A stretch of 64,000 bases of DNA from Narcine bancroftii (GCF_036971445.1 NC_091476.1:10974001-11038000), one strand, 5' to 3'; counted from the stretch's first letter, positions 1-56,499 are shown. A program made the numbers and translations. The notes: generated from the letters alone by a model not told the origin.

Positions 1-355
1 TTGGCACAGCATTGTGGGCTGAAGGGCCTGTGCTGTCTTATAGAACATTACAGCACAGAAACAGGCCCTTTGGTCCTTCTAAGCTGTGCCAAAATATCTG
101 CTTTGCACCCAGACTATGTCTTTCCATTACTCCTCCCATCTATGTACCTGTCCAATATTTTTTCTTAAATGCCACAATTGAGCTCACATTTACCAGTTTA
201 TTCAGGCGCCTGTCTACATTTTGCTTGTATCTTCATCTTTGCACCAAACACTGTTTGACCTGTATTGTGTTTTAACTGGTGATAAACTAAGTTATGTTTA
301 ATGCAAATGATCTTAATGGACAGAAAATTGTTAACTGGCCTTGCTCTCCAATTAG

Positions 356-514
356 TTACCTTCACTGTTGCAATGACATTACTCTGGATAAGAGCAACTC
401 TGAAAGTTGGGGATTTAGCATTGTTGGAGGCTTTGAGGACAGCAAAGAAAACCAGCCTTTCTTTATCAAAACCATTGTACCCGGCACACCAGCATACTTT
501 GATGGAAGACTAAA
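356..514 (+). CDS. lnx2b: LNX-family E3/PDZ protein (LNX2-like; probably LNX3/lnx2b), penultimate coding exon, PDZ4 N-half
   Basis: Acceptor caattag|T and donor AA|gtaagt. Encodes [54 protein letters not shown], resembling LNX2 [36 protein letters not shown]. Confidence 0.88.
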
Positions 515-2544
515 GTAAGTGAAATCAACATCTTTGGCTGCATTAAAGAGGAAACTACTGTCTGTATAAGGTGACTGGGTGTATCAGACAACCCTCAGCA
601 TTTCTGCTTAAAATGTAGGTTTTGAGCCGTATCAGACTACCCCAAGTCTGGCGCTGCTGAGAGCTTACTGACCTAAGTCCTTTACAGACTAATGGAGAGA
701 TGGTGTTAAGCACACAACTAAGCAACACCGTCTTGATTATTTAAAATTTAGCCAATTCAAGTAATGGCAAAATACTGTCAATTACCTACCATGATATGCA
801 TCAACCGTTCTCAGCTGGTGTAACGTAATCACTAGTGACGGAACTTGTGTGTTGGTTCTTTTACAGGAAACAACTGTGGTGTTGAGTATAATTTTACCAT
901 TTACTTGAAATTGATTTACTGATGTATAATATACTGGAAATGTTCACATAAAGTACATTGCAGGAATTTTCTTTAAGTTAGAAACTCAGTCTTGTGAACC
1001 AAGACTATCAATAGGACAAATGTTCAGACTTTGGTCTTGTCTATTCTAGTTCATTTGATTACACCAATAGGTGTTTCATTAATACATTTTTTATTGTTTT
1101 ATTACTATTAATCCAGTTCCTAAATGCAAGTTTCAGTAGAAAAATGTTTAATGGCAGGAATTTAGGGGGCAAAACTTTAGGAGTAATATTCACTCAGAGT
1201 GGAATGATCTTCCAGAAGAAGTAGTTGCAGCAGGGTCAATTCTGTCATTTAAGAGGCTAGATGGATGTGAGGGGGGTTGGAGGGTTATGGGCATGGGAGT
1301 GGGTAGGTGGAACTAGTGGAGTTTCACGTAAATTGATGTGGATTAGAAGGGCCTGTTTCCGTACTGTAAATGGTTATGTTGTGTATTTTATGCTGTTCTC
1401 CATCGCTACGGGTTCAAATTCCATCTTATTCGCTGACATATATGGTAGCCGTGGAGCTTTATCACATCAGAAAAGCTTAGAGATTATGTGGCTTAATAAG
1501 GCATTGGTAGAGGTGGAGGAATATGTGCACAAGTGGTAACTGAATCTTACCACTTGACAAATTTGTAATCAACATTTTCAAAGGTTTATGTTACCAAAAA
1601 AATTTGATAGAATACATATTTTCTTTTTGAAATTCCAATGAGAACTACAAATCAACCTGAACATTTCCTTGAGCCAACAGACAGCCGATTCTGGGATCTA
1701 CAGCAAGAAAAAATAAACTGCTGAAAGAAATAAAATGGTTAAATGGCATCTGTGGAGACAAAGGGATGGTTAACATTTTGTATCGTGACTGAGGGAAGAT
1801 GCCAGAATGTACAAGTGAGAAGGATAAGGCAGTCCTGTGGGTGATGGGTTGAACCAGATAAAGTGAAGGAGGGAATGTTGAACCAGAGGCTGATAGATGC
1901 AAGGGTGAAATGGAGGGGGGGGGGGGGGGGGGGGGAGATGGAGTCATTGAATTTTCCAATTTCAAATAACCTACATGTCTTTTGTGCCCTTTCCATTTGT
2001 CACACCAGTTCTCTTTTTTCATGTTTTCTATCGTTTCACCACCCCCCCCCCCCGAAAAAAAAAACTGGTCCTATGACCCATACCAATCCAGCTGAAGTTT
2101 TCACCCTCCCTGCATGGCCTCATCTGCCTATCTCTGTTCCTTACCTTTCCCCGTTATATTTCTGTCATCTATCAGGCTCACCTCTCACTTCCATACAGTG
2201 GTAATCTTCCCTCTATGCTCTTCAGTCCTGATGTACGTTCTTGACTCAAAACATCAACCAGCTCTTAGCTTCCACCGATGCTGTAACCTGGTGTGCTCTT
2301 CCAGCAGCTTATTTAAAAAAATATATAATTTGTTTCATCAATTCTATTTCCCTATCCCCATGTTTTTCCTCTCTCTTCCCCCCTTCCCTCATCCAATTAA
2401 GACCTTTTTGTCTGATGGTGTGTATACTCCTCCCTAGCCTTTTAATTCAGACACCTGCCAATTTTAAACTCTAACTTGAAGAAGGGTTCAGGCCCTGAAA
2501 ATCAGTTTTTAAAAAATACATATAAATAAATATTAATTTAGATC

Positions 2545-2630
2545 TATATATATATTTACACACACACACACACACACACATATATCTATATATATATATA
2601 TATATATAGATATATATTAATATATGTATA
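2545..2630. repeat. (TA)n(CA)n(TA)n microsatellite
   Basis: Direct observation. Confidence 0.9.
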
Positions 2631-3921
2631 TCTTTAGCTCCTATGGATGCTGAGACACCTGTTGAGCTCTTCCAGCATTTCTGTGTTTTTACTACAATTA
2701 TTGACTGCAGGATTTTTGTTTCACTCGTTTCACAGGATAGTAAAACAAATAATGGCAAAGTTTAATTTCCAAAGTTACCCTTATGGAGGCCTTTTTTCTT
2801 GGGTGGGGGGGCGGCGGGTTGAGATGTGGGATAGAATTCAACAGCTGAGGTCCTTATCAGCTAATTGTCAGTGGTGTGGACAATACAAAAACACATCACA
2901 AAAATAGAGCAAGGAATTGCTGTTTGACTTGGGTTCCAGGTCTGAAGCCTTTAGCGAGACTAAGGTAGAATGAGTGAAATTACACACGCGATGGAGGAAG
3001 AAAGCTGGGGAGAGGCCAAGAGGTGATAACAGTATAGGACAGAAGGTGTGGGAGGAGCAGCAGGAACCATGAAGGGCATTGGAAAGAGAGAGGGAGAGTA
3101 CAGGTGTAGGTAGTTACTAAAAATGAGCAATGTCAATGTTCATGCCATTAGTTTAAGGCTGTCCAGGAGGAATATGATTTGTTCCTTGGGATTATGTTTA
3201 GCCTTGCTCCAACAATGAATAAGGCTAAAGCCAGACATGTCATTGTAGGGAGGTAAAACCCAGATGGTCAGAATCTTTCCCCCCAGGGCAAAACTATTTC
3301 ACACTAGAGGAAATGCATTTAAGGTGAGGCAGGGGAAAGAGTTTAAGGGAAATTGTGGGGCTAATATTTTTTTTACATAGTAGTTGGTGCCCAGAATGGG
3401 CAGTGGAAGCAGATACAGTCCTAGTTTCCACATAGACACATGAATATAAAGGGTGGTAGCATATTATCAGATTGAAGTAGCAGATTTGGGCATTGCTTGC
3501 CACTGACACAGCCTGTTGCTGAGCTGCACTATTCCATATTCATCAACTTTAAAGGGAGGAGTATGAATGGTAGGCTTGTTAGAGATGATGAATAGGAGTG
3601 GAAGAATTCAAAGGAATGATTTTAAATACTACCCTCCCACCTAAATTAATTAAATAAAAAGGAATGATTTTAAAATTGAGGCATTGATGTGATGGGAGAC
3701 TGCTAGATTGAATACAGATTTTGGAGCACTGATGTTCCAGGCTGAGGTAACAAAAACAGACAATGTATAAATCAGTAATGATCTGTTTGAGTGGCAGGGA
3801 AAGCTTAGATGTGTTATTTGTATGACTGTCAAAATACCCTTTATTAAAGAATCTAAATAACTTGTATTTTGCACTTTTCCATGCTTAAGAGCAGTGTCTC
3901 ATGTTCTCTTATCATCCACAG

Positions 3922-4057
3922 GTGTGGGGATGAAATTGTCGCTGTTAATGGAGTTTCCACAGCAGGCATGAGCAACTCAGCTGTAATCCCAATGCTGAAA
4001 GAACAAAGAAATAGAGTCACTCTCACAGTTGTCTCTTGGCCAGGAAGTTGTGTGTGA
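3922..4057 (+). CDS. lnx2b: LNX2-like/LNX3 last coding exon (PDZ4 C-half, stop TGA)
   Basis: Acceptor atccacag|G, phase matches the previous exon. [44 protein letters not shown] is much closer to the LNX2 C-terminus ([22 protein letters not shown]) than to LNX1. Confidence 0.88.
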
Positions 4058-4145
4058 AAGTGGCACGACAAAAATCGGTATCTATAAAAATGACCAGATC
4101 ACCAAAGTGCAATTTTTTTTGAAGTTTTTAAGCAGCGTGTTTTAA

Positions 4146-4965
4146 AATAAATTTGTAAAGGTAAGAAAGTCCTGCCATGAAGTCCAAATTGGTGTCCAAA
4201 ACTTAGCTTCTGCATGAAGTCATACAACTGCCTTGAACGTGGACTTCAGAGTACGGACTGATCTGCCCAGTCAAAGCATTCAGTCAGACTTGTTAAGCAC
4301 AATTTTTTTTAAAATCTAAAGAGTATCAACATTATCTGCATAAGCAGGCCAGGCTGTGCAAATACTAGTTCACTTTTTTTCAGATCTACTCAAGTATAAC
4401 AGTGAAAATAAATTCTGGAGATTGAGATAAAACTTTGTTGTACTTCATTTCTTTCCTATGATATTGTTATATAAATGAATTAGTGCTGCCATCAAGGTGG
4501 ACATTCATAATTGGGATATGGAGATAATTCAGGAAACAACGAGGGGATAAAGTTTACAGTTTAAGATTATTGCATGAACTAGCTGAATCTAGCAATGTCA
4601 TTGGGTGGGCATGTATTCCTTGAAGTTTAAAAGAATTATGGGGGTCATTTTTCTTGGAGAGATTAGTGGAAATATTTCAGAAAACAAGAGGGATATGGCC
4701 CAATCCCAGGTAGGTGCAACATTTTGGTCAGAGTCAGAGAGCTGGGCCAAAGGGCCTGTTTCTATGCTGTATGACCCAGTAGATGGATAAATAGCACAGA
4801 AGTTGTTGAGTGCAGCTCAGCATCATATTAATAGTTGGGGAATCTTGAAGGGCTTGATGAATTACAACTGCTCCTATTTTGTGATCTGTGTTTTCTCACT
4901 CAACATTTTGTTTATGAAGTTATTTTGACTGTTACATAGTGGCAATTTAAAATTGTAACATTAAA
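4146..4965 (+). terminator. Candidate polyadenylation signals of the LNX gene (AATAAA 4146-4151, 4407-4412; ATTAAA 4960-4965)
   Basis: Hexamers downstream of the stop; which one is used is unknown. Confidence 0.4.
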
Positions 4966-5098
4966 TCATCAATTTATCATCTGAATCAGGTTTTGAAAGT
5001 TAGTACTTTAAATCTTTGATTTGAAAATCTATTTTAATTTTCTCGAAAGTTAGATCCTAACTTACAAGAAAAATAGTACAAATTATTTAGAAAATTTT

Positions 5099-5104
5099 TT
5101 TAAT
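5099..5104 (-). terminator. Candidate polyA signal (ATTAAA) of the FIP1L gene
   Basis: ATTAAA on - strand ~180 nt after the stop, preceded by several TGTA (CFIm-type) motifs. Confidence 0.45.
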
Positions 5105-5286
5105 GTTTGTTTTACAATTACACTTTACAAAAATCCAAGTGTAAGTATGTAGAAATATGGGATCAGGCTTCTCATTGAATTATTAGGCGTTCAAGTCCAT
5201 GGAATTGATTTTTCCCCTTAAAGTTGCGTTCACTGATCTGCACATGACGAATATACCTGGATGTGGAAACCAGCTCAGCAACTGAG

Positions 5287-5416
5287 TTATTCTTTTGTCT
5301 CCGCCTCTGGTGCTGCACCTCCTTCATCCCCAGCCTCCTTGTCTTCTTTGCTTCGTTTATTCTTCTTGTGTTTGTGGCGTCTGTGACCTTCTCCTTCCTC
5401 ATTGTCATGCTGTTTG
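5287..5416 (-). CDS. FIP1L1: FIP1L exon 16 (last coding)
   Basis: ttttacag|C AAA...; [42 protein letters not shown]. Confidence 0.9.
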
Positions 5417-8400
5417 CTGTAAAAGGAAGCAAGCACCAGTAAACATCTCTTTGTAATCCAGAGCTCAAGTATATAGCAGTGGATTTAGATAATTCTTGAT
5501 GGAAGAACCCAGAAATGCTTGAATAATGTTTTCACTTGTTTACTGAAGTCTTGCTGCAGTTACATCTCGACAATTCCAAGCACTTCCACCCCCTCCCCAG
5601 TGACTATTGAGAAAGTTATGATGCAACCAGTAAATCTATGAACAATGATAACTTGGTTAAATATTACAGGTTCCCTAAAGAAAATAATTCTGTGATTTGA
5701 CCATTTCAGTCCATGCAATCGGTAAGGTCTTTTCACATTGCTGTGTACAAGTGGGTTAACTAGGTAATTTACCCAGCTACCTACCCAGGAGTCGTGCAGT
5801 GTGAAAAGGTCAGACCAGACAGGGCCGGTCAAAATCAACCAGGCTCCAAGACCTAGGTCGGGAGTAGTCTTGGAGCTTGGCTGAGTTCGCCTGCCAATCT
5901 CCTGGTGGTGTGAAACCACAAATGGCTTACCAGGTAAGCTTTGTGATGTCAGCCTGCGTCACATGAAACCTGACTAACGCGTCTGTGTGACCTCGGACAA
6001 ATGAGAAAAATCGCAAACAATTACTAGAAATAATTAAACCTCCCTTATTAAGGAAGCAAACTTTAAATTTCTTGATTGTCTTTTACTAGTAAGAATGCTG
6101 ACCACTTCAGATCACCCTGTACTTGAAAACAGACCCATTTTAGGGGCAAAGTAACAACTCTGGGAGTGTATTAAAATCATTTGTGTGCATTTCAAGAGCA
6201 GATTTGAATATATTTTTTAACTTAGCCCACTGAAACCTTGACATGCTGGCCTGTGGATTAGATTTCGAGCTTGTGAAGACTAATAGGTTTGAAAAAAAAA
6301 AAGAGTGATTGTTGCACTTTGGAGAGTGAGCTCACTAAGCAGCAGACAAAGAATCAATAGAAGAACGTCAGAAGCTTTTCCTCACGCAGATTCACCATCT
6401 TGCAGTGAAACAGAGGTATTAATTCAACCTCAAATGTTAAAAAAGTGAAAAATTTAGAAGAATCCTCACCACAAATGTTTTAAAATGAAATAATTACCAT
6501 TTATTTCATATATTTGGTATATGTGGTATATAGTCTAACAATCTTCAAACCCTTAGCGTCCAATGGATCTCAGACCATCATACCAGAACCAAACCATGCA
6601 CTTTGTACAGTGATATTTAATCTTGTCAAAGAACAAAAATTGAAAACAGTAGAATTTCTGAAGTACACACCGCCTTGATGACTTGTGCTTGGAATCATCT
6701 TTATCTTTGTGCCTCCGTTCCCTATGGCGATCTTCCCTGTCTCTACTGCGATCTCTGCTCCGATGATATTCTCTGTCGTAGTTTCGTTCTCTGCTGCAAA
6801 ACCATACATTATTAATGAATAATTTGAACAAATCCAACCAACTGAAAACTAAATTAGAAACTTAATCAAATTGATCTTGCATCCAACATTGATAATAACA
6901 GGAGTGGAAAAATAAAAAGTGAAATGACAAATTGTATAAATTCTGAAAATTAGACAATGAATGGTTGGATCTTGGGGAGTTTGAGGAACAAAGCGACCTC
7001 TGAACAAATCCACGGATCCCTTCTGCGATAATACAGGTGTAGATAAGATGATGAAAAGTGCACGCGAGTTTTAATTTAATATTTAAAAAAATTAATTTAG
7101 ATATACAGCACAGTCCCTTCTAGCCCAATGTTCTCAAATACCCCAATTAATCTCCAACCCCTGTATGATTTTTTTTGAAGGGTGGGAGGAGACACGGAGA
7201 AAATAAAAACTTCTTAAAGACAGACGTTTGCCTTCATTAGTCAGGACACAGTACAAGAGCAGAGGGGTTAAAGTACTTGATAAAACATTATTCTATCAAT
7301 GGCTGAAGTACTGTGTACAGTTCTAGTCAGCATGTGGTGATTGTAGTGGCGAGGATGCAGAGATTCATTAAGATGTTGCCTGGGAAGGAGTGGTTCAGTT
7401 CTGAGAAGAAGCTACATAGGCTTTGTTTGCTTGCCTTGAAAGGTGGGGTGGGGGGAGAAAGGGAAAAGAATCTGCAAGAATCAGATGGTAGGAAACTTTT
7501 CCTCTTAGCAGAGGTATCAAGAGTAGAGGCTGTAGATCTGGGGTAAGAGTTGATTTTGGAGGGTATGTGAGGAAGAACCTTTATCCACTTGACGTATCTA
7601 GGCAAGCATGTGAATCAACAATGCATAGACAACTACTATTCTGGCCTTTATCCTGATTCCAGCCATATGGTTTTCCCTCAACTGCTACCTCAATTCAAGA
7701 GCAATGAGGCATGGACAACCAAAGCTTAGCATCGTTAGGGATGTCAACATCCTGTAAGTTCAAAACATAATATTTACTCACTTGTATTCAGTCGTTGGGG
7801 TTGGGCCTCGATCTCTCTCTCTATTTCGTTCTCGGTCAGGTTCTCGCTCACGCTCACGTTCACGCTCTCGCTCTCGCTCCCGTCGTGGCCCTTTGTACTC
7901 CCAGTGGCTACTGGTGTTTTTATCAACTGTGCTCATCCAGGGTGCTTGTGCTGTGGAGGCTGCTGGATAACCAATCAATCCAGATTCTGGAAAATACATT
8001 TTAAGAAAGGAGGATTGACGTCATCAGAGAAGGAAAGTCATTTACAAAAAATGGTCTATAATACAAAATCTAATGAGTAAGTTTTATATATATAAATATA
8101 AGAAAGGGATGAGAACCTTAATAAAGTTAAAATTTTGGTTTACATGGGGAATGCAACCGAACGCCATTTTTTATACTTTTGGAAATTAGTCAATAAGCAA
8201 ATATCACATTAAACTGAAATGCAGGACAAGTATGAAATTGTTAATCTTCCGGAGTTATCCCAACCATCTCTATAAAACAGTTTCTATTAACATGGCAAAT
8301 TATATTCTGAAAGCTATATTATTGCAGCCTGATTTCTCATCAAATGAGAGAGGATTAGCAGTCATTGCTTTTGGTCAAGAGATCATTTGGGAGTATTAAT

Positions 8401-11400
8401 TGGAGGAGAGGATGGATGGGAGGGTTATGGAGAGAAATGGATTGGGTGCAGATCAGTGGGACTACAGATTATAATAGTTTGGGACAGATTAGAAGGGTTA
8501 AAGGGCCCGCTTCTGTGTTGCAATGTTCAATGGTTCTAATTACCTGTTGGATTATAGGGAAACAGAGGTGGAGGCCTGTTGTCATAGCCTGGAGGTGGAG
8601 CACTGGAAGAGAAGGCACAAATATTCACCATTATTCACACTACAATGCATTTCTTAAATTTCCATTTATATTGTATTTTTCAAGTTAAACTGTCTTATCA
8701 GCATGGCGTCATGTAATTAAAATTAAGCCTAGGCAGGGCTTTCCACAGTTTCTAGGATTATTGATCATATTTTACAATAACAATCTGGGACCAGGAATGC
8801 AATTTCAAACACCTGGAATGTAGATAACACTGAAGGTTGAATCTGACACAAGATTTTGTAAAAGGTTTGCAGAGTAGTTCTGAATGGCCTACACATTGGA
8901 GAGACTCCATTCTACTTGATAATTATAAAATATTAATTACTAATTAATAACCTCCCTTCTCCCCATAAAATCTACATCAGCATCTCACAAGATCTATGAA
9001 ACTTAGAAAGTTGACAAGTACAAAGAAAATTTTATGAAATTATGTGGAGGGGTGATCAGGCAGGTCGTTAATGCAGAAAATAGAAAAATGACCAATGACA
9101 TGGGATTTCCAATATTATGCCCTCCATCTGGTCCCCAATTGTGCTGGGCTGGGAGCAATTAGTGGGAGAGGTTGTAGTCTATGGCACTGTTCCAATTGTG
9201 GAGTGATGAGGCTTGTGAAAGGTTAATGAAAAGCTTGCAGATGGTCAAGGGAAAAAGAATTTACTGGGTTGCCTTTGTTTCTTCAGACCCTTGGTCACCT
9301 AGCTCTTTGAGGCCTTTCCAATGCATTTCTCAATGTTGGGGGAAATCTGGCACATGTCCATTTATAAATAGAACTATTGTCCTGAGGCTCCATGTGTTTA
9401 TTTTAATATCAGACAGACTAGGAAGGCTATCTTCATTCCCCCTTTTGATGTAGGAGACTGCTTGGCGCACTAAATCTACAAGCTCTTGGGAGCAATCCTA
9501 TCAACCTCATTCCCTCACATTATTTCCCTGCATCCATTCTTCAACATCATATTTACTATTAGTGTTTTCTGATTTGTGGAAGGGGAAACAAAGACTAACA
9601 TTAGATGGGCAGGAGGGGATCCCAGGTACTGAGTTGCTTGGAGATGTTTGCTTTCAAAGATGACATACAGAATGAATGACAGGATTTGAAGACATTTAGT
9701 TTTCATAGCTGTACTGACAGGTGAGGCTTCAACTAGGTTTGTAGATCTGGCAAAGCAGTAGAAATGGGGTCATCAACACAAACTATTTTGATTGATCTTT
9801 CCCTGAGTGACAGCATTTTTTAAATATAAAATTTGCTGAATTCATTATTGCCAACAACTAAAGTTTAAACATTATTTCCAGATGTGTGAAATAGAAAACT
9901 ATCAATTTCCAAGATGAAATTGAAATCGGTTAGTATTGCACAAAGTGTTAATTTGAAATTGATGACTTTTTAAATTCATATTCCTTTTTAATAGTTTGCT
10001 GAATAGAATTGATTTACAGTGCCATAGACTACAACCTCTCCCACTAATTGCTCCCAGCCCAGCACAATTGGGGACCAGATGGAGGGCATAATATTGAAAA
10101 TCCCATGTCATTGGTCATTTTTCTATTTTCTGCATTAACGACCTGCCTGATCACCCCTCCACATATTTTCATAAAATTTTCTTTGTACTTGTCAACTTTC
10201 TAAGTTTCATAGATCTTGTGAGATGCTGATGTAGATTTTATGGGGAGAAGGGAGGTCGGGTCAGATACAGCAATGAGCTCTCTGAACCCTTCTCCATTAA
10301 CAATGGCGTGAAGCAAGGCTGTGTTCTGGCACCAACCCTCTTTTCAATCTTCTTCAGCATGATGCTGAACCAAGCCATGAAAGACCCCAACAATGAAGAC
10401 GCTGTTTACATCCGGTACCGCACGGATGGCAGTCTCTTCAATCTGAGGCGCCTGCAAGCTCACACCAAGACACAAGAGAAACTTGTCCGTGAACTACTCT
10501 TTGCAGACGATGCCGCTTTAGTTGCCCATTCAGAGCCAGCTCTTCAGCGCTTGACGTCCTGCTTTGCGGAAACTGCCAAAATGTTTGGCCTGGAAGTCAG
10601 CCTGAAGAAAACTGAGGTCCTCCATCAGCCAGCTCCCCACCATGACTACCAGCCCCCCCACATCTCCATCGGGCACACAAAACTCAAAACGGTCAACCAG
10701 TTTACCTATCTCGGCTGCACCATTTCATCAGATGCAAGGATCGACAATGAGATAGACAACAGACTCGCCAAGGCAAATAGCGCCTTTGGAAGACTACACA
10801 AAAGAGTCTGGAAAAACAACCAACTGAAAAACCTCACAAAGATAAGCGTATACAGAGCCGTTGTCATACCCACACTCCTGTTCGGCTCCGAATCATGGGT
10901 CCTCTACCGGCACCACCTACGGCTCCTAGAACGCTTCCACCAGCGTTGTCTCCGCTCCATCCTCAACATCCATTGGAGCGCTTTCATCCCTAACGTCGAA
11001 GTACTCGAGATGGCAGAGGTCGACAGCATCGAGTCCACGCTGCTGAAGATCCAGCTGCGCTGGATGGGTCACGTCTCCAGAATGGAGGACCATCGCCTTC
11101 CCAAGATCGTATTATATGGCGAGCTCTCCACTGGCCACCGTGACAGAGGTGCACCAAAGAAAAGGTACAAGGACTGCCTAAAGAAATCTCTTGGTGCCTG
11201 CCACATTGACCACCGCCAGTGGGCTGATAACGCCTCAAACCGTGCATCTTGGCGCCTCACAGTTTGGCGGGCAGCAACCTCCTTTGAAGAAGACCGCAGA
11301 GCCCACCTCACTGACAAAAGGCAAAGGAGGAAAGACCCAACACCCAACCCCAACCAACCAATTTTCCCTTGCAACCGCTGCAATCGTGTCTGCCTGTCCC

Positions 11401-14400
11401 GCATCGGACTTGTCAGCCACAAACGAGCCTGCAGCTGACGTGGACTTTTTACCCCCTCCATAAATCTTCGTCCGCGAAGCCAAGCCAAAGAAAAGAATTA
11501 GTAATTAATATTTTATAATTATCAAGTAGAATGGAGTCTCTCCAATGTGTAGGCCATTCAGAACTACTCTGCAAACCTTTTGCAAAATCTTGTGTCAGAT
11601 TCAACCTTCAGTGTTATCTACATTCCAGGTGTTTGAAATTGCATTCCTGGTCCCAGATTGTTATTGTAAAATATGATCAATAATCCTAGAAACTGTGGAA
11701 AGCCCTGCCACTGTCCATTTGTCTGAGTGCTTTATCTCTGAATCTCAAACTCCTTATTTCTGTTTTGTAGCAAGCTTGCTATTCAATTCACTTTTCCTCA
11801 ATTTCACATGTATTAACTGACCTCAACTTTACACATGCTGAATTTTCCCACAATGTAACAATAACCAGGTTTCAAATACAAGTATTGTATATTAACTGTA
11901 TAGTGGACACAACCAGAAGTCTAAAGTGAATGCAAAATCTTTCTTGCTTTGCACTGTAAATTTTTTTCCTCCATTCTGACAAACATCAGTAACTCATGAT
12001 GTGAGAACATTTTATCTTACCCTTCTACAGTTGGCAACAGTAAAGCTGGAGGGGGCACAATTGGTGGTGGAAATAATCCTGCATAAAGAAAGCAAATTCA
12101 ATTTACAAAGCCAAATAAATTTAAAAAAAAACCAATTTCATTAAAACTACAAAATTTGGTGCCTGGCTCACAAGTTTACATGTTAGATCTACTTGGTACA
12201 TTGCAATTTGCCATCCTGGTTTGACTGATCAGAAATGATAAGAATAACTACATGGATATTTCCCAACAGTTTAATCATTCATATAGATCAGAAAACTACA
12301 GAATTTGATCCCAGATCGTGCTGTTAGTCAACCTCAGCTTGGGGATCAATGAGAACTTTTAAGTAAGTTCAACCAATCACATTAAAGATGGAAATATGGA
12401 CAATTTGCAAAAACAATGTCTTAAATTTTACTACACCATTCAATGCTCATTTTGCATTACAATAAACTTATCAGGAATATTTTAAGGAATGCTGCAAGAG
12501 GCAGATGTATCTGTATTATCCATTTATATCCATATCATACAGCAACATAATTTAGAATTCATTCTTGTGGAATTAAATTAGTTTGCATACAGTTGTATTT
12601 GCTGGATTAAAAAAAAAATTAAAAGTACAGTACAACTCCGATTATCCAAAAAATGGATTCTCCAAAATCTTCATTTATCCAAATTTTTTTTTTAATTCGG
12701 AAAAATTAGGATATCCAAAATAAATTAATTATTTTTGGAGCCAAACTGACCTCAAAGGTTGAAAAAAACTTCACCCGACATGAAATTAGAACTATTGTCC
12801 TTGTTTCAGGTAACTCCCTCCCCTCTCTCTTTTCATTTCTTCTTTACCTTTCCCTTTTGACTTTTCTTTCCAACTCTTCCTCTCAAACTGTGTCACTGTC
12901 TCCCAGCTGCAAATGGTTGGAAGAATCCTTTGTACTGGCGACATCAAGGAGAGCAGCCTCCTGGGCAGGAGTGGGACCTCTGGCTCAGTGGCGTACCCCC
13001 TCCCCGTTGGCACATCAGACACTGAGTCTGAATCCTCCCATTGGCCTATTTCCCTGGTGTGCATATGCGGTAGGCCTAGGGGAGAATATGAAGTCAGGAC
13101 TCCGGCGTCAGGGCCCCCGGTGACCAGGGAGACAAGAGCCTGCTGACTCGCCAGTGAGTGTTCCACCAGCCCGGGGATCAGCAGTGGGTTCGTGTCAGGG
13201 ATCGACATTGGCGGTTGAGTTCATCTTGGTGATCAGCAGCAGGTAGCATTTTTTTTTTTGGTGAGAATTAAACATTATCTTAATGCTTAAAAAGCCTTCC
13301 CTTGTTGTTTGTTGTTTAAACATGGATACAAGTGATTTGCCGTTGCTACTGGGCTGTTTTTAAAGTGACCAGTTCTCCAGAAAAACGTTTATCTGATATA
13401 GGCCTGGTCCCGACCATTTCAGATAAATTGGAGTTGTACTGTATATACCTTTCTGTCACAAATTTAAAGCTGACCCTATGCAAAACATACTCTGTTCCAA
13501 GTGTGAGATTATTTTATCGGTAAGGCTCCTGTCATTGTGAAATCAACTGTTATTACTTCAGACTCGAATTGTTGATCATTTGAGAAAACCAAATAAATTT
13601 ATCACAGTTGTACATGTAAATTGAATGCAGGATTACCTGGTAGAGATCCAGGTGGCGGCATTCCTGTAAAGAAAAGAAGTTTCACTGTCTTTAAAACAAA
13701 CCAACTATATAAATTGACAATATAAAGTTCTCCAGTTACCTGACAGAGAGGTTCCTTCTGAACCATCCCAAGGCAGAAAAAAAATCTTTTAATCTAATGA
13801 TATTATTGGCAAGTTACAGATTATTGTTTCATTCATCACCTCCATCACAGAACATCTTGATGAGCACACATTTTACAGTATTCCAAATAACCATTTACGG
13901 AGCGGAAACAGGCCATGTTGGCCTTTCGAGTCCGCACCGGTTCACTGATTTTGTGCACCCTCTTCAGGCATTGGTCCCGGTAGATCTTCATTCAATAACG
14001 ATGGGCGAATTCAATGCAGGTGGAATCAGATATTAGCAAAACTATGAGCATTCCGAGAAATTGATTTTAATTTCAGTATCACCATTGAAACAATGGGAAC
14101 TACTAAGAGTTAATGTTTCCAAATCAAAGTACAGTGCAGATTTTATGTGCATAACTGTATTGCAAGTCTGATTTATGCTGTTGAACAAGAAAGCCTGCAG
14201 ATGCTGGGGTCAAGTGCAATGCACAAGCATGTTGGAAGAAATAAAAACACAAAATGCTGGAGAAGCTCAGCACATCAAACGGTCCTTTATGTAGCAAAGG
14301 CAAAGATACAGAACTGCGTTTCAGGCTTGAGACCTTCAACAAAGTACGAGAAAATGCCAGTGAACGTCAAAATAAGAGGGGGTAGCAGGGCAGGAGATGA

Positions 14401-41400: not shown

Positions 41401-42122
41401 CCTCCACCTTCCCCACTCACCCCCCACCCTCACCCCCTCCACCTTCCCCACTCACCCCCCACCCTCACCCCCTCCACCTTCCCCACTCACCCCCCACCCT
41501 CACCCCCTCCACCTTCCCCACTCACCCCCTCCACCTTCCCCACTCACCCCCTCCACCTTCCCCACTCACCCCCTCCACCTTCCCCACACCCCCACCTTCC
41601 TCACTCACCTCCCCACCCTCACCCCCACATATCCTCCCTACCCCCCTCACTCCTCCCCAGCCCCTCCCTCCCCCCTCCCCAGCCCCTCCACGCCCCCCTC
41701 TCCCCGACCCCCCCCCTCCCCCGACCCCCCCCTCCCCCGACCCCCCCCCTCCCCCGACCCCCCCCTCCCCCAACCCCCCCCTCCCCCGACCCCCCCCTCC
41801 CCCGACCCCCCCCTCCCCCGACCCCCCCCTCCCCCGACCCCCCCCTCCCCCGACCCCCCCCCTCCCCCGACCCCCCCCTCCCCCGACCCCCCCCTCCCCC
41901 GACCCCCCCCTCCCCCGACCCCCCCCTCCCCCGACCCCCCCCCTCCCCCGACCCCCCCCCTCCCCCGAACCCCCCCCCCCCTCCCCCGAACCCCCCCCCC
42001 CCTCCCCGTGGACGCTCACCTCCGTACAGCCAGCTCTCCTCCTCGTCGTCCAGGCCGCTCCCGCTGCCCGGCGCTGCCGTCGCCTCCGCGGCCGAGCTCA
42101 GCGCCTCCATGTCGGTGGCCAT
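5287..42122 (-). CDS. FIP1L1: Pre-mRNA 3'-end-processing factor FIP1-like gene, 16 coding exons, 528 aa (FIP1L1 family; by synteny the FIP1L2-type paralog)
   Basis: Exons 42020-42122, 33827-33869, 32327-32402, 31117-31217, 29471-29526, 24674-24784, 23463-23593, 22502-22626, 18370-18475, 15658-15790, 13637-13663, 12021-12078, 8544-8602, 7782-7986, 6671-6793, 5287-5416. All introns GT-AG, total 1587 nt in frame. Contains the acidic N-terminus, Fip1 motif, Pro-rich region and RE/RD and Arg-rich C-terminus. Confidence 0.93.
6671..6793 (-). CDS. FIP1L1: FIP1L exon 15 (Arg-rich)
   Basis: [40 protein letters not shown]; NAGNAG acceptor (gcag cag), donor gtgtgt. Confidence 0.88.
7782..7986 (-). CDS. 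FIP1L1: FIP1L exon 14 (RE/RD dipeptide domain)
   Basis: [41 protein letters not shown]...[10 protein letters not shown]; flanks tttccag / gtgagt. Confidence 0.9.
8544..8602 (-). CDS. FIP1L1: FIP1L exon 13
   Basis: [19 protein letters not shown], resembling human GYDSRSARAFPYGN; flanks ctcttccag / gtaatt; restores phase. Confidence 0.85.
8732..11709. repeat. Long near-perfect inverted repeat: arm 8732-9190 vs arm 10016-10256 + 11496-11709 (split by the RTE)
   Basis: Direct base-by-base reverse-complement match with ~3 substitutions in ~455 bp. Confidence 0.92.
10257..11495 (+). mobile_element. 5'-truncated RTE-clade LINE (RT C-terminal part + 3' UTR), young copy
   Basis: Uninterrupted ORF 10308-11438 with [11 protein letters not shown] and LFADD RT motifs, a C-terminal Cys/His motif and a (GCCAA)2AGAAAAG tail; near-identical to copies at 25.8 kb and 54.9 kb. 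Confidence 0.93.
12021..12078 (-). CDS. FIP1L1: FIP1L exon 12
   Basis: [20 protein letters not shown]; flanks atgcag / gtaaga. Confidence 0.85.
12628..13441. mobile_element. Tc1/mariner-pogo-type MITE with TA TSD
   Basis: TA|CAGTACAACTCCGATTATCC ... AGATAAATTGGAGTTGTACTG|TA terminal inverted repeats. Confidence 0.8.
13637..13663 (-). CDS. FIP1L1: FIP1L exon 11 (27-nt microexon)
   Basis: GMPPPGSLP; flanks tctttacag / gtaatc; symmetric phase 1. Confidence 0.75.
14190..14715. mobile_element. Penelope-associated terminal repeat remnants with hammerhead-like cores
   Basis: ctgcagatgctgg...aaatgctggagaagctcagc motif shared with 1690-2490, 51245-51430, 54240-54310 and 57000; CTGACGA-A-GGGC-ccag-GCCC-aAAA at 14641. 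Confidence 0.55.
15658..15790 (-). CDS. FIP1L1: FIP1L exon 10 (Pro-rich)
   Basis: [44 protein letters not shown]; flanks attag / gtaaga. Confidence 0.88.
16560..17070 (-). mobile_element. CR1 3' fragment
   Basis: [10 protein letters not shown]...[10 protein letters not shown], typical of the CR1 3' end. Confidence 0.7.
18370..18475 (-). CDS. FIP1L1: FIP1L exon 9
   Basis: [36 protein letters not shown], resembling human [24 protein letters not shown]. Confidence 0.9.
18824..19191. mobile_element. Second copy of the same MITE family (opposite orientation, internally deleted)
   Basis: TA|CACTACAACCCCGATTATAC ... GGATAATCAGAGTTGTGCTG|TA; internal sequence is the reverse complement of parts of 12628-13441. 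Confidence 0.75.
20237..20563. mobile_element. Tigger/pogo-like MITE
   Basis: TA|CAGGTATGCCCCACTTAAC ... GTTAAGCAGCGCATACCTG|TA. Confidence 0.7.
21010..22345 (+). mobile_element. Degenerate CR1 LINE (RT 3' part)
   Basis: [22 protein letters not shown]-like and [19 protein letters not shown] motifs with frameshifts. Confidence 0.88.
22502..22626 (-). CDS. FIP1L1: FIP1L exon 8
   Basis: [41 protein letters not shown], resembling human VQQGRTGNSEKE...KAEFTSPP. Confidence 0.88.
23070..23290 (-). mobile_element. tRNA-derived SINE, same family
   Basis: Reverse-complement similarity to 46134-46395 (gggttcaaatccggtgctgtctataag). Confidence 0.7.
23463..23593 (-). CDS. FIP1L1: FIP1L exon 7 (Fip1 motif, CPSF30-binding region)
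   Basis: [43 protein letters not shown]. Confidence 0.95.
24674..24784 (-). CDS. FIP1L1: FIP1L exon 6 (start of Fip1 motif)
   Basis: [37 protein letters not shown]. Confidence 0.95.
25774..26207 (-). mobile_element. 5'-truncated RTE LINE, same family
   Basis: Reverse complement of the 3' end of 10257-11495 ([19 protein letters not shown]...SHKRACS). Confidence 0.92.
26280..26530 (+). mobile_element. Rex1/Babar- or L2-type LINE 3' fragment
   Basis: [17 protein letters not shown]...[19 protein letters not shown]; same family as 27920-28790. Confidence 0.7.
26550..27865 (+). mobile_element. Degenerate CR1 LINE
   Basis: [36 protein letters not shown] and [15 protein letters not shown] motifs. 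Confidence 0.9.
27920..28790 (+). mobile_element. Degenerate Rex1/Babar- or L2-type LINE
   Basis: [31 protein letters not shown] and FKFLGVTI motifs. Confidence 0.8.
28810..29036. repeat. 54-bp minisatellite, ~4 copies
   Basis: Unit aacatcccacttaatgag(aa/gc)tgttaatggagagcaacatagattcagaaccaag. Confidence 0.95.
29471..29526 (-). CDS. FIP1L1: FIP1L exon 5
   Basis: [18 protein letters not shown], resembling human GTAPVNLNIKTGGRVYG. Confidence 0.88.
31117..31217 (-). CDS. FIP1L1: FIP1L exon 4 (acidic region)
   Basis: [33 protein letters not shown], resembling human [27 protein letters not shown]. Confidence 0.92.
32327..32402 (-). CDS. FIP1L1: FIP1L exon 3
   Basis: [25 protein letters not shown]; flanks atgcag / gtaagt; phase-consistent but weakly conserved. 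Confidence 0.72.
33827..33869 (-). CDS. FIP1L1: FIP1L exon 2
   Basis: [14 protein letters not shown]; flanks ttatttatag / gtaagt; phase-consistent. Confidence 0.75.
35902..35935 (+). mobile_element. RTE 3'-tail-only insertion
   Basis: ataaatcttcgtccgcaaagccaagccaaaga matches the 3' terminus of the RTE copies. Confidence 0.7.
39515..40086. mobile_element. Degenerate pogo-like MITE
   Basis: TAGTAAAACCCCTGGTATCCGG ... CAGATAAATTGAAATGTACTG|TA imperfect TIRs. Confidence 0.5.
41040..42007. repeat. C-rich (G-rich on the FIP1L sense strand) compound low-complexity repeat in intron 1
   Basis: Blocks of CCCTCCACCCTCACC, CCACCTTCCCCACTCAC and CCCCGACCCCCCCT units. Confidence 0.9.
42020..42122 (-). 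CDS. FIP1L1: FIP1L exon 1 (start codon)
   Basis: [34 protein letters not shown], resembling human GGDEEEEWLYG; Kozak gccATGG; donor G|gtgagc. Confidence 0.9.
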
Positions 42123-45238: not shown

Positions 45239-45244
45239 TTTATT
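45239..45244 (-). terminator. Candidate distal polyA signal of a long CHIC1 3' UTR
   Basis: tgtgtaAATAAA on - strand at the end of an AT-rich, TGTA-rich, repeat-poor stretch (~45250-46100). Confidence 0.35.
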
Positions 45245-46133: not shown

Positions 46134-46395
46134 GGGGCAGCATGGTTGGCGTAGCGGTTAGTGCAACACCTTTACAGTGCCAGTGATTGGGACTGGACGG
46201 GGGTTTTAATCCCGCGCTGTAAGGAGTTTATACGTTCTCTGTGTCTGCGTGGGTTTTCCCCGGGGGCTCCAGTATCCTCCCACTGTTCGAAACATACCAG
46301 GGGTGTAGGTTAATTGGGTGTAAATTGGGCAGCATGGACTCGAGGGGTGAAATGGCCTGTTACCATGCTGTATGACTAAACTTTTTTTTTAAATT
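46134..46395 (+). mobile_element. tRNA-derived SINE (V-SINE/HE1-like)
   Basis: A-box-like TGGCGTAGCGG, B-box-like GGTTTTAATCC, core gtgtctgcgtgggttttcc, A/T tail; reverse copies at ~7080-7230, 23070-23290, 25090-25270 and 33360-33540. Confidence 0.75.
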
Positions 46396-50587: not shown

Positions 50588-50638
50588 TTAGTCCGGTCGA
50601 AATATAGGAAATTTTGGTAAGAATTCTATTAGTATTAC
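50588..50638 (-). CDS. CHIC1: CHIC1-like cysteine-rich hydrophobic domain protein, last coding exon
   Basis: ctttatag|GTA...TAA encodes VILIEFLPKFPIFRPD*, the CHIC1/2 C-terminus. Confidence 0.9.
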   Translation of the reverse strand, partial: VILIEFLPKFPIFRPD

Positions 50639-53600: not shown

Positions 53601-54030
53601 TCAAATAGATCACTGAGTAAAATCAGTTTGGTCAAAGACTGTCTATTGTGATGAAGTTATCAGGAGGAAACTTCTGACAAGGGATGGGAACAAAAGATTA
53701 AAAGTTGCTTTATCATTTCACAAAATAAATTTTCTATGCTATTGAGTAAATCCTGTTAAAAGTTCTTCATTAAGGTTTGAACAAGATGAAACATGAATGT
53801 GACATCCTCCAGAATCTTGAAGCTGGAGAATGCTAGCTCATACAAGACAATTGGCCTTCCCCCACCTCCCTCCCCCCCAACCCCCCACAGAAACTTTGGA
53901 ATTATTCCAAATAAAAAAATTAGCATACTTACCTCCGGTGTGTCCCAATGTGGTCATTTAAAACAGGGACACTTTCACACAGCCTTCCTGTCTTGTTGAA
54001 TTTGTCGGAGGGGGAACGTCGTGTTCATTA

Positions 54031-54219
54031 GGCCAGTTTCTTACTGCGTGGCTGTGGTCAATTTACACTGCAGCCGCTCCGTAAAAACGTGTAGGTTTAT
54101 GAGTGGAAAAATTACGGGATGGAATTTGCATAAAAATTCCATCCAGACATTTTTACCCTGCCATCGCAGCAGAAATTTTCCTGAAATTTTCTGCTGTTCA
54201 GTGGCTGTGTAAAAGTGCC
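54031..54219. mobile_element. Possible PIF/Harbinger-like MITE
   Basis: TTA|GGCCAGTTTC ... GTAAAAGTGCC|TAA imperfect TIRs and an internal palindrome. Confidence 0.4.
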
Positions 54220-54358
54220 TAATGCCAAAGCCCTTAGGAAAAACACAAAATACTGGAGAAACTCAGCATGTCAAACAGTGTCCTTTATGTAGCAAAGGCA
54301 AAGATTCAGAACTGCCCTTAAAATCATTATCAACACATCTCCTTTGAAGAGACTGTCA

Positions 54359-54463
<105 letters not shown>

Positions 54464-54903
54464 CTAATTCCAAAACAAGAAAAACAGATTTACTTGATAA
54501 ACAAGAAAAAATTAGCTGAGCTAAACTTCAGAAGTAATCACACTACATAAATCAACAAAAATTCCAGTAAATTATTAAACCATCTATTCAGAATATTGGA
54601 GGATCTTTGTATTGGTATCACTGAAATGGGCGAGAATCATTCTTTCTCCTTCTCTGTAAATTTAACAAATACAAGTTGTTCTTCATCAATGAAGATGCAA
54701 CAAGTTCAAGATATCCTGAAAAATAGTCTATACAGAATTAATGACAGACATTTACTAAATCATATGTTGGGAGACCAAAAGGCAATAATGAAAAGATGGA
54801 CAAAAGATTATTGAGAATGCAAGAGATCATTGGAATTAGGAACAAAATTCAAGAGAACGATTTAGTCAAAGTCTGATAGCTCTGCCATACATGAAACATG
54901 TAT

Positions 54904-55591
54904 GTCTGGAAAAACAACCAACTGAAAAACCTCACAAAGATAAGCGTATACAGAGCCGTTGTCATACCCACACTCCTGTTCGGCTCCGAATCATGGGTCC
55001 TCTACCGGCACCACCTACGGCTCCTAGAACGCTTCCACCAGCGTTGTCTCCGCTCCATCCTCAACATCCATTGGAGCGCTTACATCCCTAACGTCGAAGT
55101 ACTCGAGATGGCAGAGGTCGACAGCATCGAGTCCACGCTGCTGAAGATCCAGCTGCGCTGGATGGGTCACGTCTCCAGAATGGAGGACCATCGCCTTCCC
55201 AAGATCGTGTTATATGGCGAGCTCTCCACTGGCCACCGTGACAGAGGTGCACCAAAGAAAAGGTACAAGGACTGCCTAAAGAAATCTCTTGGTGCCTGCC
55301 ACATTGACCACCGCCAGTGGGCTGATATCGCCTCAAACCGTGCATCTTGGCGCCTCACAGTTTGGCGGGCAGCAACCTCCTTTGAAGAAGACTGCAGAGC
55401 CTACCTCACTGACAAAAGGCAAAGGAGGAAAAACCCAACACCCAACCCCAACCCACCAATTTTCCCCTGCAACCGCTGCAATCGTGTCTGCCTGTCCCGC
55501 ATCGGACTTGTCAGCCACAAACGAGCCTGCAGCTGACGTGGACTTTTTACCCCCTCCATAAATCTTCGTCCGCGAAGCCAAGCCAAAGAAG
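54904..55591 (+). mobile_element. 5'-truncated RTE LINE, same family, with 10-bp TSD ACATGAAACA
   Basis: Near-identical to 10806-11495; TSD copies at 54889-54898 and 55592-55601. Confidence 0.93.
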
Positions 55592-56442
55592 ACATGAAAC
55601 AGATGAGAAATAACAAGGGGAATTCATAGCAGCCCAGAGTTTCAGGATTGATGAAAAATTTAGCAAGGTTGACAAAATAAACATGGTTCTCCTTGAATTC
55701 AAAACAAGATCAGGGATTGAAATTAAATATACAGAGAACATTTTAAATTAAGATAGTCCAACACCATGAAAGTGATTATGGCATGATCAACCAGTGATAA
55801 TAGAGTAGATCTGTTTGTAATCAGTATACATATGGAAGCTGATTCTAGGCATGCAGAAGAAATCATCAAGGAAGCCTCTCCCCACTCACAAAATGTTGTT
55901 TTGGATGATTAGCTGCAAGTGAAAGGAGCCTTTAGATAATATGCACCGTCATGGAGAAGCAACGAAGGTGAACTGAACAAGATTGCTGTGGAATGTTAGT
56001 TTTAATAATTTTAGAAGCAACTTGAGAATTGAGCTCGGGACAATACAGTGATAAATCCTGAAAGTTAGACCACATTGGATAGATTCAGTTTCAGGATTAG
56101 TTCACCAAGATTTTCCAACTTGGTAAAAAATCCAAAAGTTAAAATTTTAATTTAGCTTTCCTTTAAATAAACATCAACAAGACAATGATTTAGAATCAGA
56201 TTAGATAGTTGACCAAATTCAAATATAATAGCTTGAATGTAGAGAAAATACAAAGAAGATCTTTAAATTAAATACTTCCCCTCGATTCAAGGTGCTGAAG
56301 TGAGCAAGCAAAATATAGCGCCACCATGTGGAATTTCTTTTGTCATAAACCTATGTTGATCATCTTTATCACTAGACCTATGCAAATATTTTATCAAGTT
56401 TAGGACAGAATTATGATATGTATATAATCATTAATTCCTCAC

Positions 56443-56499
56443 CTTGTGATACAATCTGTTGTTCTCCCATTCTAACAGCTTTTGTATTGATTTTCTAGT
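56443..56499 (-). CDS. CHIC1: CHIC1-like, third-to-last coding exon (upstream exons lie beyond the window)
   Basis: TRKSIQKLLEWENNRLYHK; flanks ttttccag / gtgagg; SIQK as in CHIC1 (CHIC2 has SIEK). Confidence 0.9.

Follow-up and report, generated by a model that had tools for sequence, protein, structure and literature searches.

A proto-X-inactivation centre was reportedly described in chicken and Xenopus by Duret in 2006, and human 4q12 carries the FIP1L1-LNX1-CHIC2 order of the ParaHox paralogon. In the accessible part of one account (PMC2430539), the chicken and Xenopus locus reads Cdx4-Chic1-Fip1l2-Lnx3-Rasl11c-Uspl-Wave4-Slc16a2-Rnf12, and the insertion of Fip1l2 is assigned to an amphibian ancestor. 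Conservation of the LNX3/USPL/WAVE cluster across chicken, lizard, Xenopus, coelacanth and gar, alongside two paralogous clusters, is stated in the accessible part of PMC5577775, in which 'shark', 'fip1' and 'tsix' are, to that extent, absent from the main text. Tsix, a long non-coding RNA transcribed from a promoter of its own, represses Xist in mouse (PMC12101419).

In this study, a stretch of 64,000 nucleotides of the ray Narcine bancroftii (the window) was analysed. It contains the last two of nine coding exons of LNX2b ('Lnx3') on the plus strand, the whole of FIP1L2 on the minus strand, and the last three of six exons of CHIC1, also on the minus strand (Table 1). With considerable confidence, we regard it as the ray's intact orthologue of the LNX2b-FIP1L2-CHIC1 block that became the mammalian X-inactivation centre, and as a likely twin, through vertebrate genome duplication, of the LNX1-FIP1L1-CHIC2 block; in this ray copy, FIP1L2 transcripts likely include a spliced form with a second 3′ end, antisense to the last LNX2b exon. 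The exon models bore out the gene order and strands proposed in a preliminary description (LNX plus, FIP1L and CHIC minus, FIP1L between them), and its span of 356..56499 proved exact, with coding exon 8 of LNX beginning at 356 and coding exon 4 of CHIC at 56499.

Table 1. Features of the window, with positions counted from its first letter.
Feature	Position	Strand	Basis or remark
LNX2b (Lnx3) coding exon 8/9, PDZ4 start	356..514	+	exact model, identical to P0121; PDZ match; joint 514|3922
Candidate alternative FIP1L2 terminal exon	3825..3994	-	joint 3994|5257; 3′ end (~3825) inferred from AATAAA 3845-3840
LNX2b coding exon 9/9, stop codon, PDZ4 end	3922..4057	+	gene model
FIP1L2 3′ UTR intron, 1262 nt, GT-AG (candidate)	3995..5256	-	covers LNX2b coding end and intergenic stretch
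Intergenic stretch, 1229 nt between convergent stops	4058..5286	.	poly(A)-type hexamers: plus 4146, 4407, 4960; minus 5104, 5038
FIP1L2 exon 16 (stop)	5287..5416	-	model; joint 5416|6671 in 4/4 runs
FIP1L2 exon 15 (RE/RD-rich)	6671..6793	-	acceptor 6793; in-frame alternative at 6790
FIP1L2 exon 14	7782..7986	-	model and contigs
FIP1L2 exon 13	8544..8602	-	model and contigs
FIP1L2 exons 9-12, proline-rich region	18487-18370, 15790-15658, 13663-13637, 12078-12021	-	model
FIP1L2 exons 6-8, Fip1 motif (CPSF30-binding region)	24784-24674, 23593-23463, 22626-22502	-	model
FIP1L2 exons 1-5, acidic N-terminus	42122-42020, 33869-33827, 32402-32327, 31217-31117, 29526-29471	-	model
CHIC1 coding exon 6/6 (stop)	50588..50638	-	model
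CHIC1 coding exon 5	54404..54463	-	model
CHIC1 coding exon 4	56443..56499	-	model

On C17, the contig of the window, the order from 11.08 to 10.65 Mb is WASF4-GPR-USPL-RASL11C-LNX2b-FIP1L2-CHIC1-CDX4-KDRL. Outward of CHIC1 lie the CDX gene that had been anticipated there and, further on, a lone VEGFR-type kinase; outward of LNX2b lie RASL11, a USP12/46-type gene and a WASF gene (the names CHIC1, CDX4 and those of the kinases were assigned by position, not from trees). The core order Cdx4-Chic1-Fip1l2-Lnx3-Rasl11c-Uspl-Wave4 is present, as in chicken and Xenopus, with all seven genes coding. Unlike those two, the ray has a GPR gene between USPL and WASF4, and its SLC16A2 and RLIM lie 3.5 Mb off on the same contig (7.07-7.16 Mb), inverted together, so that of the flank expected beyond LNX the RASL11 and USP12/46-type genes were found and SLC16A2 was not adjacent. 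Past WASF4 come a serpin and two connexins, not Slc16a2-Rnf12, whose adjoining Wave4 is a tetrapod flank state outside the core block. FIP1-like and LNX2b genes share a same-sized contig in all five other chondrichthyans with sizes for both. This synteny is mostly known already, the block having been described from chicken to gar. The reading of the locus as a proto-X-inactivation centre was upheld by flanks, paralogue loci and trees, except for the word "ancestor", since the locus is a living orthologue.

Two further blocks of these families were mapped. The C8 block, on a different chromosome from the window, holds a VEGFR-type and two PDGFR-type kinases, PDX2, GSX2, CHIC, LNX, FIP1L, a Sec1-family gene, RASL11 and USP, and is the separate SCFD2-FIP1L1-LNX1-CHIC2-GSX2-PDGFRA-type locus that the preliminary description had predicted elsewhere in the genome. 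GSX2 lies at 101.266 Mb; a homeobox at 101.214 Mb was rejected as GSX2, being of PDX2 type. A USP46 motif scan of C8 102.355-102.455 Mb gave no match, the gene sitting further out, and in an unfiltered exon-by-exon tblastn search against C8, repeat matches predominated. The C16 block holds WASF, USP, RASL11, LNX, GSX, PDX, CDX, and kinases of PDGFR and VEGFR type; a Fip1 gene next to its LNX2 was not found. C17, C8 and C16 correspond to the three LNX clusters in the accessible part of PMC5577775.

FIP1L2 comprises 16 coding exons from 42122 to 5287 on the minus strand; all 15 introns are GT-AG, and no internal stop occurs. With the contig-supported acceptor 6793, the protein has 532 aa, an intact open frame with the Fip1 motif (PF05182), and 90% identity to the stingray FIP1-like protein P0006 (472/525 aligned columns). 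The stingray orthologue aligns with the human FIP1 chains 7zyh_B and 7k95_B in a sequence match. From family knowledge, a role as a second Fip1 subunit in cleavage and polyadenylation is predicted for FIP1L2, with presumed binding of CPSF30 and poly(A) polymerase. An exon-like ORF at 12900-13100 gave no match in a protein search and lies outside the final model.

The LNX2b exons of the window, with seven upstream exons outside it, translate identically to P0121 (660 aa), which has a RING and four PDZ domains and is presumably a RING/PDZ ubiquitin ligase. The 514|3922 joint (GT..AG) is present in contigs of two of four runs; it is unlisted in the other two, absence from contigs being uninformative. 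An intact Tsx precursor and open Xist-precursor exons, as claimed at the outset, were what the models yielded. The C-terminus had been called LNX2-like, and in the tree (with a long-branch outgroup) the protein falls inside a 17-row LNX2b clade (100/100), apart from LNX1, carried by C8, and LNX2, carried by C16; the C16 protein groups with armadillo and marsupial LNX2 (98/94). The three CHIC exons of the window and three beyond it give an open 166-aa protein, presumably a small cysteine-rich membrane protein. Two CHIC loci occur in the genome, one beside CDX4 (C17) and one beside GSX2 (C8), and by synteny the window gene is CHIC1; a PF10256 profile search matched neither, and an Atlas look-up for CHIC yielded leads below 0.9 only. 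The feared mislabelling does not apply to LNX2b in this ray, which NCBI already names lnx2b, but it does elsewhere: databases call FIP1L2 plain 'FIP1' in elephant shark, cavefish, salmon and chicken, and LNX2b 'LNX2' in zebra finch, alligator and a caecilian.

Contigs of all four runs contain a joint from 5257 to 3994, whose sole canonical reading is a minus-strand GT-AG intron (CT..AC on plus); therefore, a further terminal exon of FIP1L2, lying opposite the last LNX2b exon, is likely. The joint fixes its 5′ boundary at 3994, while its strand, source gene and 3′ end are inferred. The runs come from a single study in contig form and are presumed to be RNA; contigs carry no strand, end or level, and none of those listed connects this exon with FIP1L2 coding exons. 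On the opposite strand, the candidate exon would cover the initial 73 nt of LNX2b exon 9 together with the splice acceptor of that exon. Its own acceptor (3994) scores above 34 of 43 real acceptors, while the donor, 30 nt past the FIP1L2 stop, scores above 22 of the 43 real donors and highest of all 53 GT sites in 4000-5287.

Because the two stop codons are only 1.2 kb apart, a FIP1L2 transcript passing the weak proximal signals (ATTAAA) could use this donor and join it to the strong acceptor, which lies opposite the LNX codons that encode L-K-E-Q; such a transcript would finish at the AATAAA within the last LNX2b intron. The FIP1L2 protein would stay unchanged, and by the 50-nt rule the junction would be too near the stop for nonsense-mediated decay. 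The overlap could dampen LNX2b through polymerase collision or masking of its last splice acceptor. The exon is probably a by-product of the tight tail-to-tail spacing. In a rough depth model, a short antisense exon was predicted at 42-64 against 31-49 observed, and one running the whole contig at 351-468; neither is evidence, as contig depth cannot rank gene parts. Contigs break near 5086, a point not usable as evidence on exon extent.

A selected, conserved regulator, with FIP1L2 read-through controlling LNX2b and its own poly(A) choice sensing Fip1 activity, is an unlikely alternative to a by-product. The joint in all four runs, the strong splice sites, the weak proximal and canonical distal hexamers and the exon's would-be cover of the LNX2b acceptor fit it, and the tail-to-tail gap is held at 1229 nt (C17) and 1316 nt (C8) in both twin pairs though introns reach many kb. 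Against it, the acceptor is accounted for by protein constraint, because the same acceptor-like sequence is also present in C16 LNX2 (score 9.9 vs. 10.4), where no Fip1 neighbour was found, and L-K-E-Q is kept in 103 of 104 scorable LNX2/LNX2b proteins (16 of 120 were not scorable). Moreover, C8 LNX1, unlike LNX2b, has no antisense YAG acceptor, its site ending in GAG and scoring 6.5, and the alignment of the C17 with the C8 intergenic stretch scores within the range of shuffled sequence (47 vs. a maximum of 48.5).

By geometry alone, the candidate exon is likened to Tsix/TSIX, whose antisense transcript comes from the Fip1l2/Tsx side and runs, on the strand of Fip1l2, into the 3′ end of Lnx3/Xist; the joint and splice signals, from unstranded contigs, fit this arrangement. 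Unlike Tsix, the ray element would be a short exon in the 3′ UTR of an mRNA that encodes a protein. The candidate exon bears on the origin of Tsix, and a quite improbable extension would be that FIP1L2 has been read and spliced across the LNX2b 3′ end since the first jawed vertebrates, Tsix/TSIX being the surviving read-through of a dead Fip1l2 3′ half. If so, antisense transcription over the Xist precursor would predate Xist, and the Xist-Tsix pair would descend from two convergent protein genes instead of being an invention of placental mammals.

More doubtful still is that the joint reflects a template switch, an assembly chimera, a genomic deletion allele or a 3′-end retrocopy elsewhere. 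Artefacts do occur in these contigs, since the same table holds seven non-canonical joints, and here the shorter side is 27 nt, three letters fit both sides, and the runs, from one study, are not on record as RNA. Nevertheless, the ends coincide exactly with a minus-strand GT-AG intron with a pyrimidine tract and the top-ranked donor, the same runs join across all four predicted introns in the stretch examined, and the real LNX2b joint has similar sides (28-30 nt), against 20-25 nt for the non-canonical ones. LNX2b, FIP1L2 and CHIC1 likely work as ordinary protein genes in the ray; a dosage-compensation role there already, for which only orthology to the X-inactivation centre speaks, is scarcely credible, as all three are intact protein genes and chromosome-level dosage compensation is reported absent in sharks and rays in the accessible part of PMC12318234.

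The C17 and C8 FIP1L genes have the same 16-exon plan with 15/15 intron phases in common, and their proteins are 61% identical (302/496 columns). Together with paralogous neighbours and a split before the shark/bony-fish divergence, the shared phases make it likely that FIP1L2 and FIP1L1 are twins from a genome duplication. The LNX2b-FIP1L2-CHIC1 and LNX1-FIP1L1-CHIC2 blocks are likewise likely twins, sharing the tail-to-tail FIP1L/LNX pair and near-equal gap, although on C8 this pair is inverted relative to CHIC and RASL11. In a FIP1L tree of 30 rows (of 49, long-branch Pleuronectes, Hyla and Myxocyprinus and 16 redundant rows were omitted), the window protein belongs to a 19-row FIP1L2 clade (100/100), apart from FIP1L1, as its proposed identity implied. 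The clade includes chimaera, sharks, lungfish, caecilian, turtle, bird, gecko, echidna, bichir, gar, bowfin and four teleosts; chicken P0273 belongs to the 90% cluster of row P0036. Under the root, a hagfish fragment filling 25% of columns, the FIP1L1 rows do not form one clade. That the window is instead the human chromosome 4-type LNX1/FIP1L1/CHIC2 block, or a duplication private to cartilaginous fishes, as shared gene families and the database name 'FIP1' for some orthologues might suggest, is already refuted by the FIP1L and LNX trees and the C8 map: a chromosome 4-type block exists separately, the window is flanked by CDX and a single VEGFR-type kinase, and the AU test rejects a single chondrichthyan FIP1L clade (p=5e-5).

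FIP1L2 is present, by sequence, in sharks, rays, chimaera and many ray-finned fishes, contrary to the amphibian insertion given in the accessible part of PMC2430539. By synteny, the entire block from WASF4 to CDX4, with FIP1L2 in it, goes back to the jawed-vertebrate common ancestor, which corrects that published entry. Added here, besides the likely antisense terminal exon, is FIP1L2 as a likely twin of FIP1L1 in cartilaginous and ray-finned fishes. Outside placental mammals, a second predicted Fip1 poly(A) factor, mostly without a name of its own and often called FIP1 in databases, exists in many jawed vertebrates (chimaera, sharks, rays, gar, salmon, lungfish, reptiles, birds and echidna).

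A Pfam TSX scan of the whole ray genome matched nowhere, controls included, and is hence uninformative. At the protein level, TSX matched 19 of 20 FIP1L2-group proteins at E<=0.01 (nine above cut-off) and one of nine FIP1L1-group proteins (none above). In orthologues, the matched part is the one encoded by FIP1L2 exons 1-5. The stingray orthologue scored 20.9 bits against TSX (PF17397), below the 25.8 cut-off, over an acidic, low-complexity stretch; the cut-off was reached by 9 of 14 bony-vertebrate FIP1L2 orthologues and by 0 of 6 chondrichthyan ones.

Exon models confirmed the gene content given in the preliminary description, namely an LNX gene on the plus strand followed by FIP1L and CHIC genes on the minus strand. 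The nine coding exons of LNX translate exactly to P0121, the ray LNX2b protein, and the upstream RING exon is identical to the Narcine bancroftii entry 'ligand of Numb protein X 2b', which bears out the chondrichthyan source suspected in the preliminary description. The FIP1L frame was open throughout, yielding a 532-aa product with the acceptor at 6793 and 90% identity to a stingray FIP1-like protein, while CHIC has six exons (166 aa, minus strand), the last three of them within the window (C17:10,974,001-11,038,000 of a 3.33-Gb genome). Contigs of four public runs from one study, presumed to be RNA, were examined over window 300-9000, and they bridged four of the four predicted introns in this stretch. 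An alternative minor FIP1L2 joint (5416|5931, CT..AC, two of four runs) retains part of the last intron (5931-6700). The Fip1 motif of the stingray FIP1L2 orthologue aligned to the human FIP1 chains 7zyh_B and 7k95_B, which belong to CPSF30 complexes, and on this alignment rests the prediction that FIP1L2 acts as a second Fip1.

Gene models, contig joints and paralogous blocks of the ray (window positions, or chromosome positions in Mb)
Feature	Position	Strand	Remarks
LNX, last two coding exons	356-514, 3922-4057	+	only these two of nine in window
FIP1L	42122 to 5287	-	16 exons, 15 GT-AG introns, frame open
LNX joint	514|3922		contigs, 2/4 runs
FIP1L joint	5416|6671		contigs, 4/4 runs
FIP1L joint	6793|7782		contigs, 3/4 runs
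FIP1L joint	7986|8544		contigs, 4/4 runs
C17, first part	WASF 10.65-10.67; GPR 10.706; USP 10.80-10.82; RASL11 10.85	+; -; -; +
C17, middle	LNX 10.935-10.978; FIP1L; CHIC 11.025-11.063	+; -; -
C17, end	CDX 11.073-11.081; VEGFR-type 11.18	-; -
C8, first part	VEGFR-type 100.65; PDGFR-types 100.94 and 101.10; PDX2-type 101.21; GSX2 101.27
C8, middle	CHIC 101.31-101.38; LNX 101.78-101.97; FIP1L 101.98-102.08
C8, end	Sec1-family gene; RASL11 102.39; USP 102.58		Sec1-family gene head to head with FIP1L
C16, first part	WASF 177.53; USP 177.90; RASL11 177.97; LNX 178.19-178.26
C16, end	GSX 178.40; PDX 178.45; CDX 178.47; PDGFR-type 178.56; VEGFR-type 178.94

The proposed paralogue identities of FIP1L and LNX were borne out by phylogeny. 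In a 30-row FIP1L tree, whose hagfish-fragment root is weak and leaves the FIP1L1 rows outside a single clade, the window protein fell into a 19-row FIP1L2-type clade (support 100/100) together with chimaera, sharks, lungfish, caecilian, turtle, sparrow, gecko and echidna, and with bichir, gar, bowfin, salmon, milkfish and two characins, while the protein encoded on chromosome C8 grouped with shark and ray FIP1. A single clade of all 12 chondrichthyan FIP1L rows was rejected (AU p=5.1e-5). Similarly, in a 26-row LNX tree with the long-branched C8 LNX as outgroup, the window LNX belonged to a 17-row LNX2b clade (100/100), and the C16 LNX grouped with armadillo and marsupial LNX2 (98/94). All 15 of 15 intron phases were common to the C17 and C8 FIP1L genes, which points to an origin of FIP1L1 and FIP1L2 by DNA-level duplication along with the whole block. 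At E<=0.01 the Pfam TSX model matched 19 of 20 proteins in the FIP1L2 group, nine of them above the cut-off (0/6 of the chondrichthyan ones), and one of nine in the FIP1L1 group, none above it; this would fit the known Fip1l2-to-Tsx descent.

Some database labels hide the paralogue: the FIP1L2 proteins of elephant shark, cavefish, salmon and chicken (P0010, P0025, P0077, P0273) are listed as 'FIP1', and the LNX2b proteins of zebra finch, alligator and a caecilian (P0155, P0181, P0203) as 'LNX2'. The sawfish FIP1-like isoform P0003 ends at 298 aa after an apparent frame shift in the proline-rich exon, likely an assembly or annotation error.

An own-genome search, in which the best candidates alone were scored and counts are lower bounds, gave at least three LNX1/2-type, two Fip1, two CHIC, three Cdx, four VEGFR-type, three RASL11, three USP12/46-type and four WASF loci. 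Loci of these families line up in three blocks on C17, C8 and C16, which match the blocks on human X, chr4 and chr13; CDX4, KDRL, RASL11C, USPL, WASF4, CHIC1, SLC16A2 and RLIM are named by position and family motifs, not by trees. As anticipated, a CDX gene lies beyond CHIC, and a separate FIP1L1-LNX1-CHIC2-GSX2-PDGFRA-type locus was found on C8, with a Sec1-family gene that we take to be SCFD2. The flank predicted beyond LNX was recovered in part: RASL11 and a USP-type gene are present, while the pair SLC16A2(+) and RLIM(-) is found 3.5 Mb away from WASF4, at C17 7.07-7.16 Mb, in an order inverted vs that of tetrapods. The three window genes are most likely ordinary protein genes that have stayed together since the vertebrate genome duplications, and the proto-XIC identity is supported, with 'orthologue' replacing the earlier word 'ancestor'.

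In place of SLC16A2-RLIM, WASF4 is bordered by one serpin gene and two connexin genes (C17 10.48-10.57 Mb). Immediately upstream of SLC16A2 is a provirus-like element, L147-L148 (G000:C17:7,065,700-7,072,500), with gag-, pol- and env-like frames matching Gag_p30, RNase H, integrase and TLV_coat, the env-like part being split over two frames. On C8, a second Pdx-type homeobox gene, L132 (G000:C8:101,214,428-101,218,093), lies between GSX2 and a PDGFR-type kinase, in keeping with the Pdx2 known from cartilaginous fishes.

PMC2430539 gives the chicken and Xenopus proto-XIC block, dates it to amphibians and has Fip1l2 arriving there by insertion ('was inserted') in an early member of that group. 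In contrast to this insertion, FIP1L2 was found here in ray, sharks, chimaera and ray-finned fishes, which corrects the literature on its age and origin. The LNX3/USPL/WAVE cluster is known from chicken, lizard, Xenopus, coelacanth and gar, plus two paralogous clusters (PMC5577775), and 'shark', 'fip1' and 'tsix' are absent from the main text of that paper. Other papers cover the name LNX2b and its origin in genome duplications (PMC3162930), the pairing of Chic1/Kdrl with Chic2/Kdr (PMC4898815), and sharks and rays having no chromosome-level dosage compensation (PMC12318234). Descent of Tsx from Fip1l2 or of Xist from Lnx3 is restated in PMC3164691, PMC3695352 and PMC12101419, the available sections of which give no origin of Tsix. 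Among the titles and abstract openings of a literature search that takes in few subscription papers, none concerned a proto-XIC of chondrichthyans or an antisense overlap between Fip1l2 and Lnx3.

A candidate antisense exon of FIP1L2 is a new, testable feature. Between the stop codons of FIP1L2 and LNX2b lie 1229 nt (1316 nt for the C8 pair), and contigs of four of four runs, unstranded and from one study, share the joint 3994|5257. The 1262 nt left out by it have CT..AC ends and read as a GT-AG intron of the minus strand. The donor of this intron is 30 nt downstream of the FIP1L2 stop, and its acceptor, inside the last LNX2b coding exon, is the reverse strand of the L-K-E-Q codons. By splice-site matrices built from 43 introns of the four genes modelled here, the donor scored above 22 of 43 real donors, and of the 53 GT sites between 4000 and 5287 it ranked first. 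The acceptor scored above 34 of 43 real acceptors and came second among 247 AG sites in 600-5200. An AATAAA at 3845 follows 150 nt past the acceptor, within the last LNX2b intron. Against a spliced FIP1L2 terminal exon count the single source study, the unstranded contig form of the data, the 27-nt shorter side of the joint and seven non-canonical joints in the same contig table; none of the contigs listed linked the antisense exon to FIP1L2 coding exons. The product is likely a FIP1L2 mRNA that would encode the normal protein and carry a terminal exon of ~170 nt, which would overlap 73 nt of LNX2b exon 9, and the acceptor of exon 9, in antisense.

This exon is most likely a by-product. A regulatory role is unlikely, whether through colliding polymerases, a masked acceptor or feedback that acts on the choice of poly(A) site: the same acceptor-like sequence occurs in C16 LNX2 (score 9.9 vs 10.4 in the window), for which the own-genome search found no Fip1 neighbour, L-K-E-Q is retained in 103 of 104 scorable proteins (120 in total), and the intergenic stretches of the C17 and C8 pairs are no more similar than shuffles. 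Still less probable is that convergent FIP1L2/LNX2b read-through was the seed of Tsix, an analogy that would draw on the geometry and on a remnant of Fip1l2 exon 17 that lies 2 kb away from the end of XIST (PMC2430539).

Several repeats were also observed. CHIC1 intron 3 holds a 14-bp G-rich tandem array (59698-63093; 242.6 copies at 100% match, the plus strand being free of A), possibly a minisatellite of the G-quadruplex type or an artefact of the assembly. Directly after FIP1L2 exon 1 come C-rich repeats, tandem and low-complexity (41042-42007), whose transcribed strand is G-rich, and FIP1L2 intron 5 contains a 54-bp tandem repeat (28815-29036, 4.1 copies). A young LINE is present in three pieces (10230-11500, with a reverse-transcriptase match, 25660-26350 and 54840-55620), and copies in the C8 region match it at 93-100% in translation.
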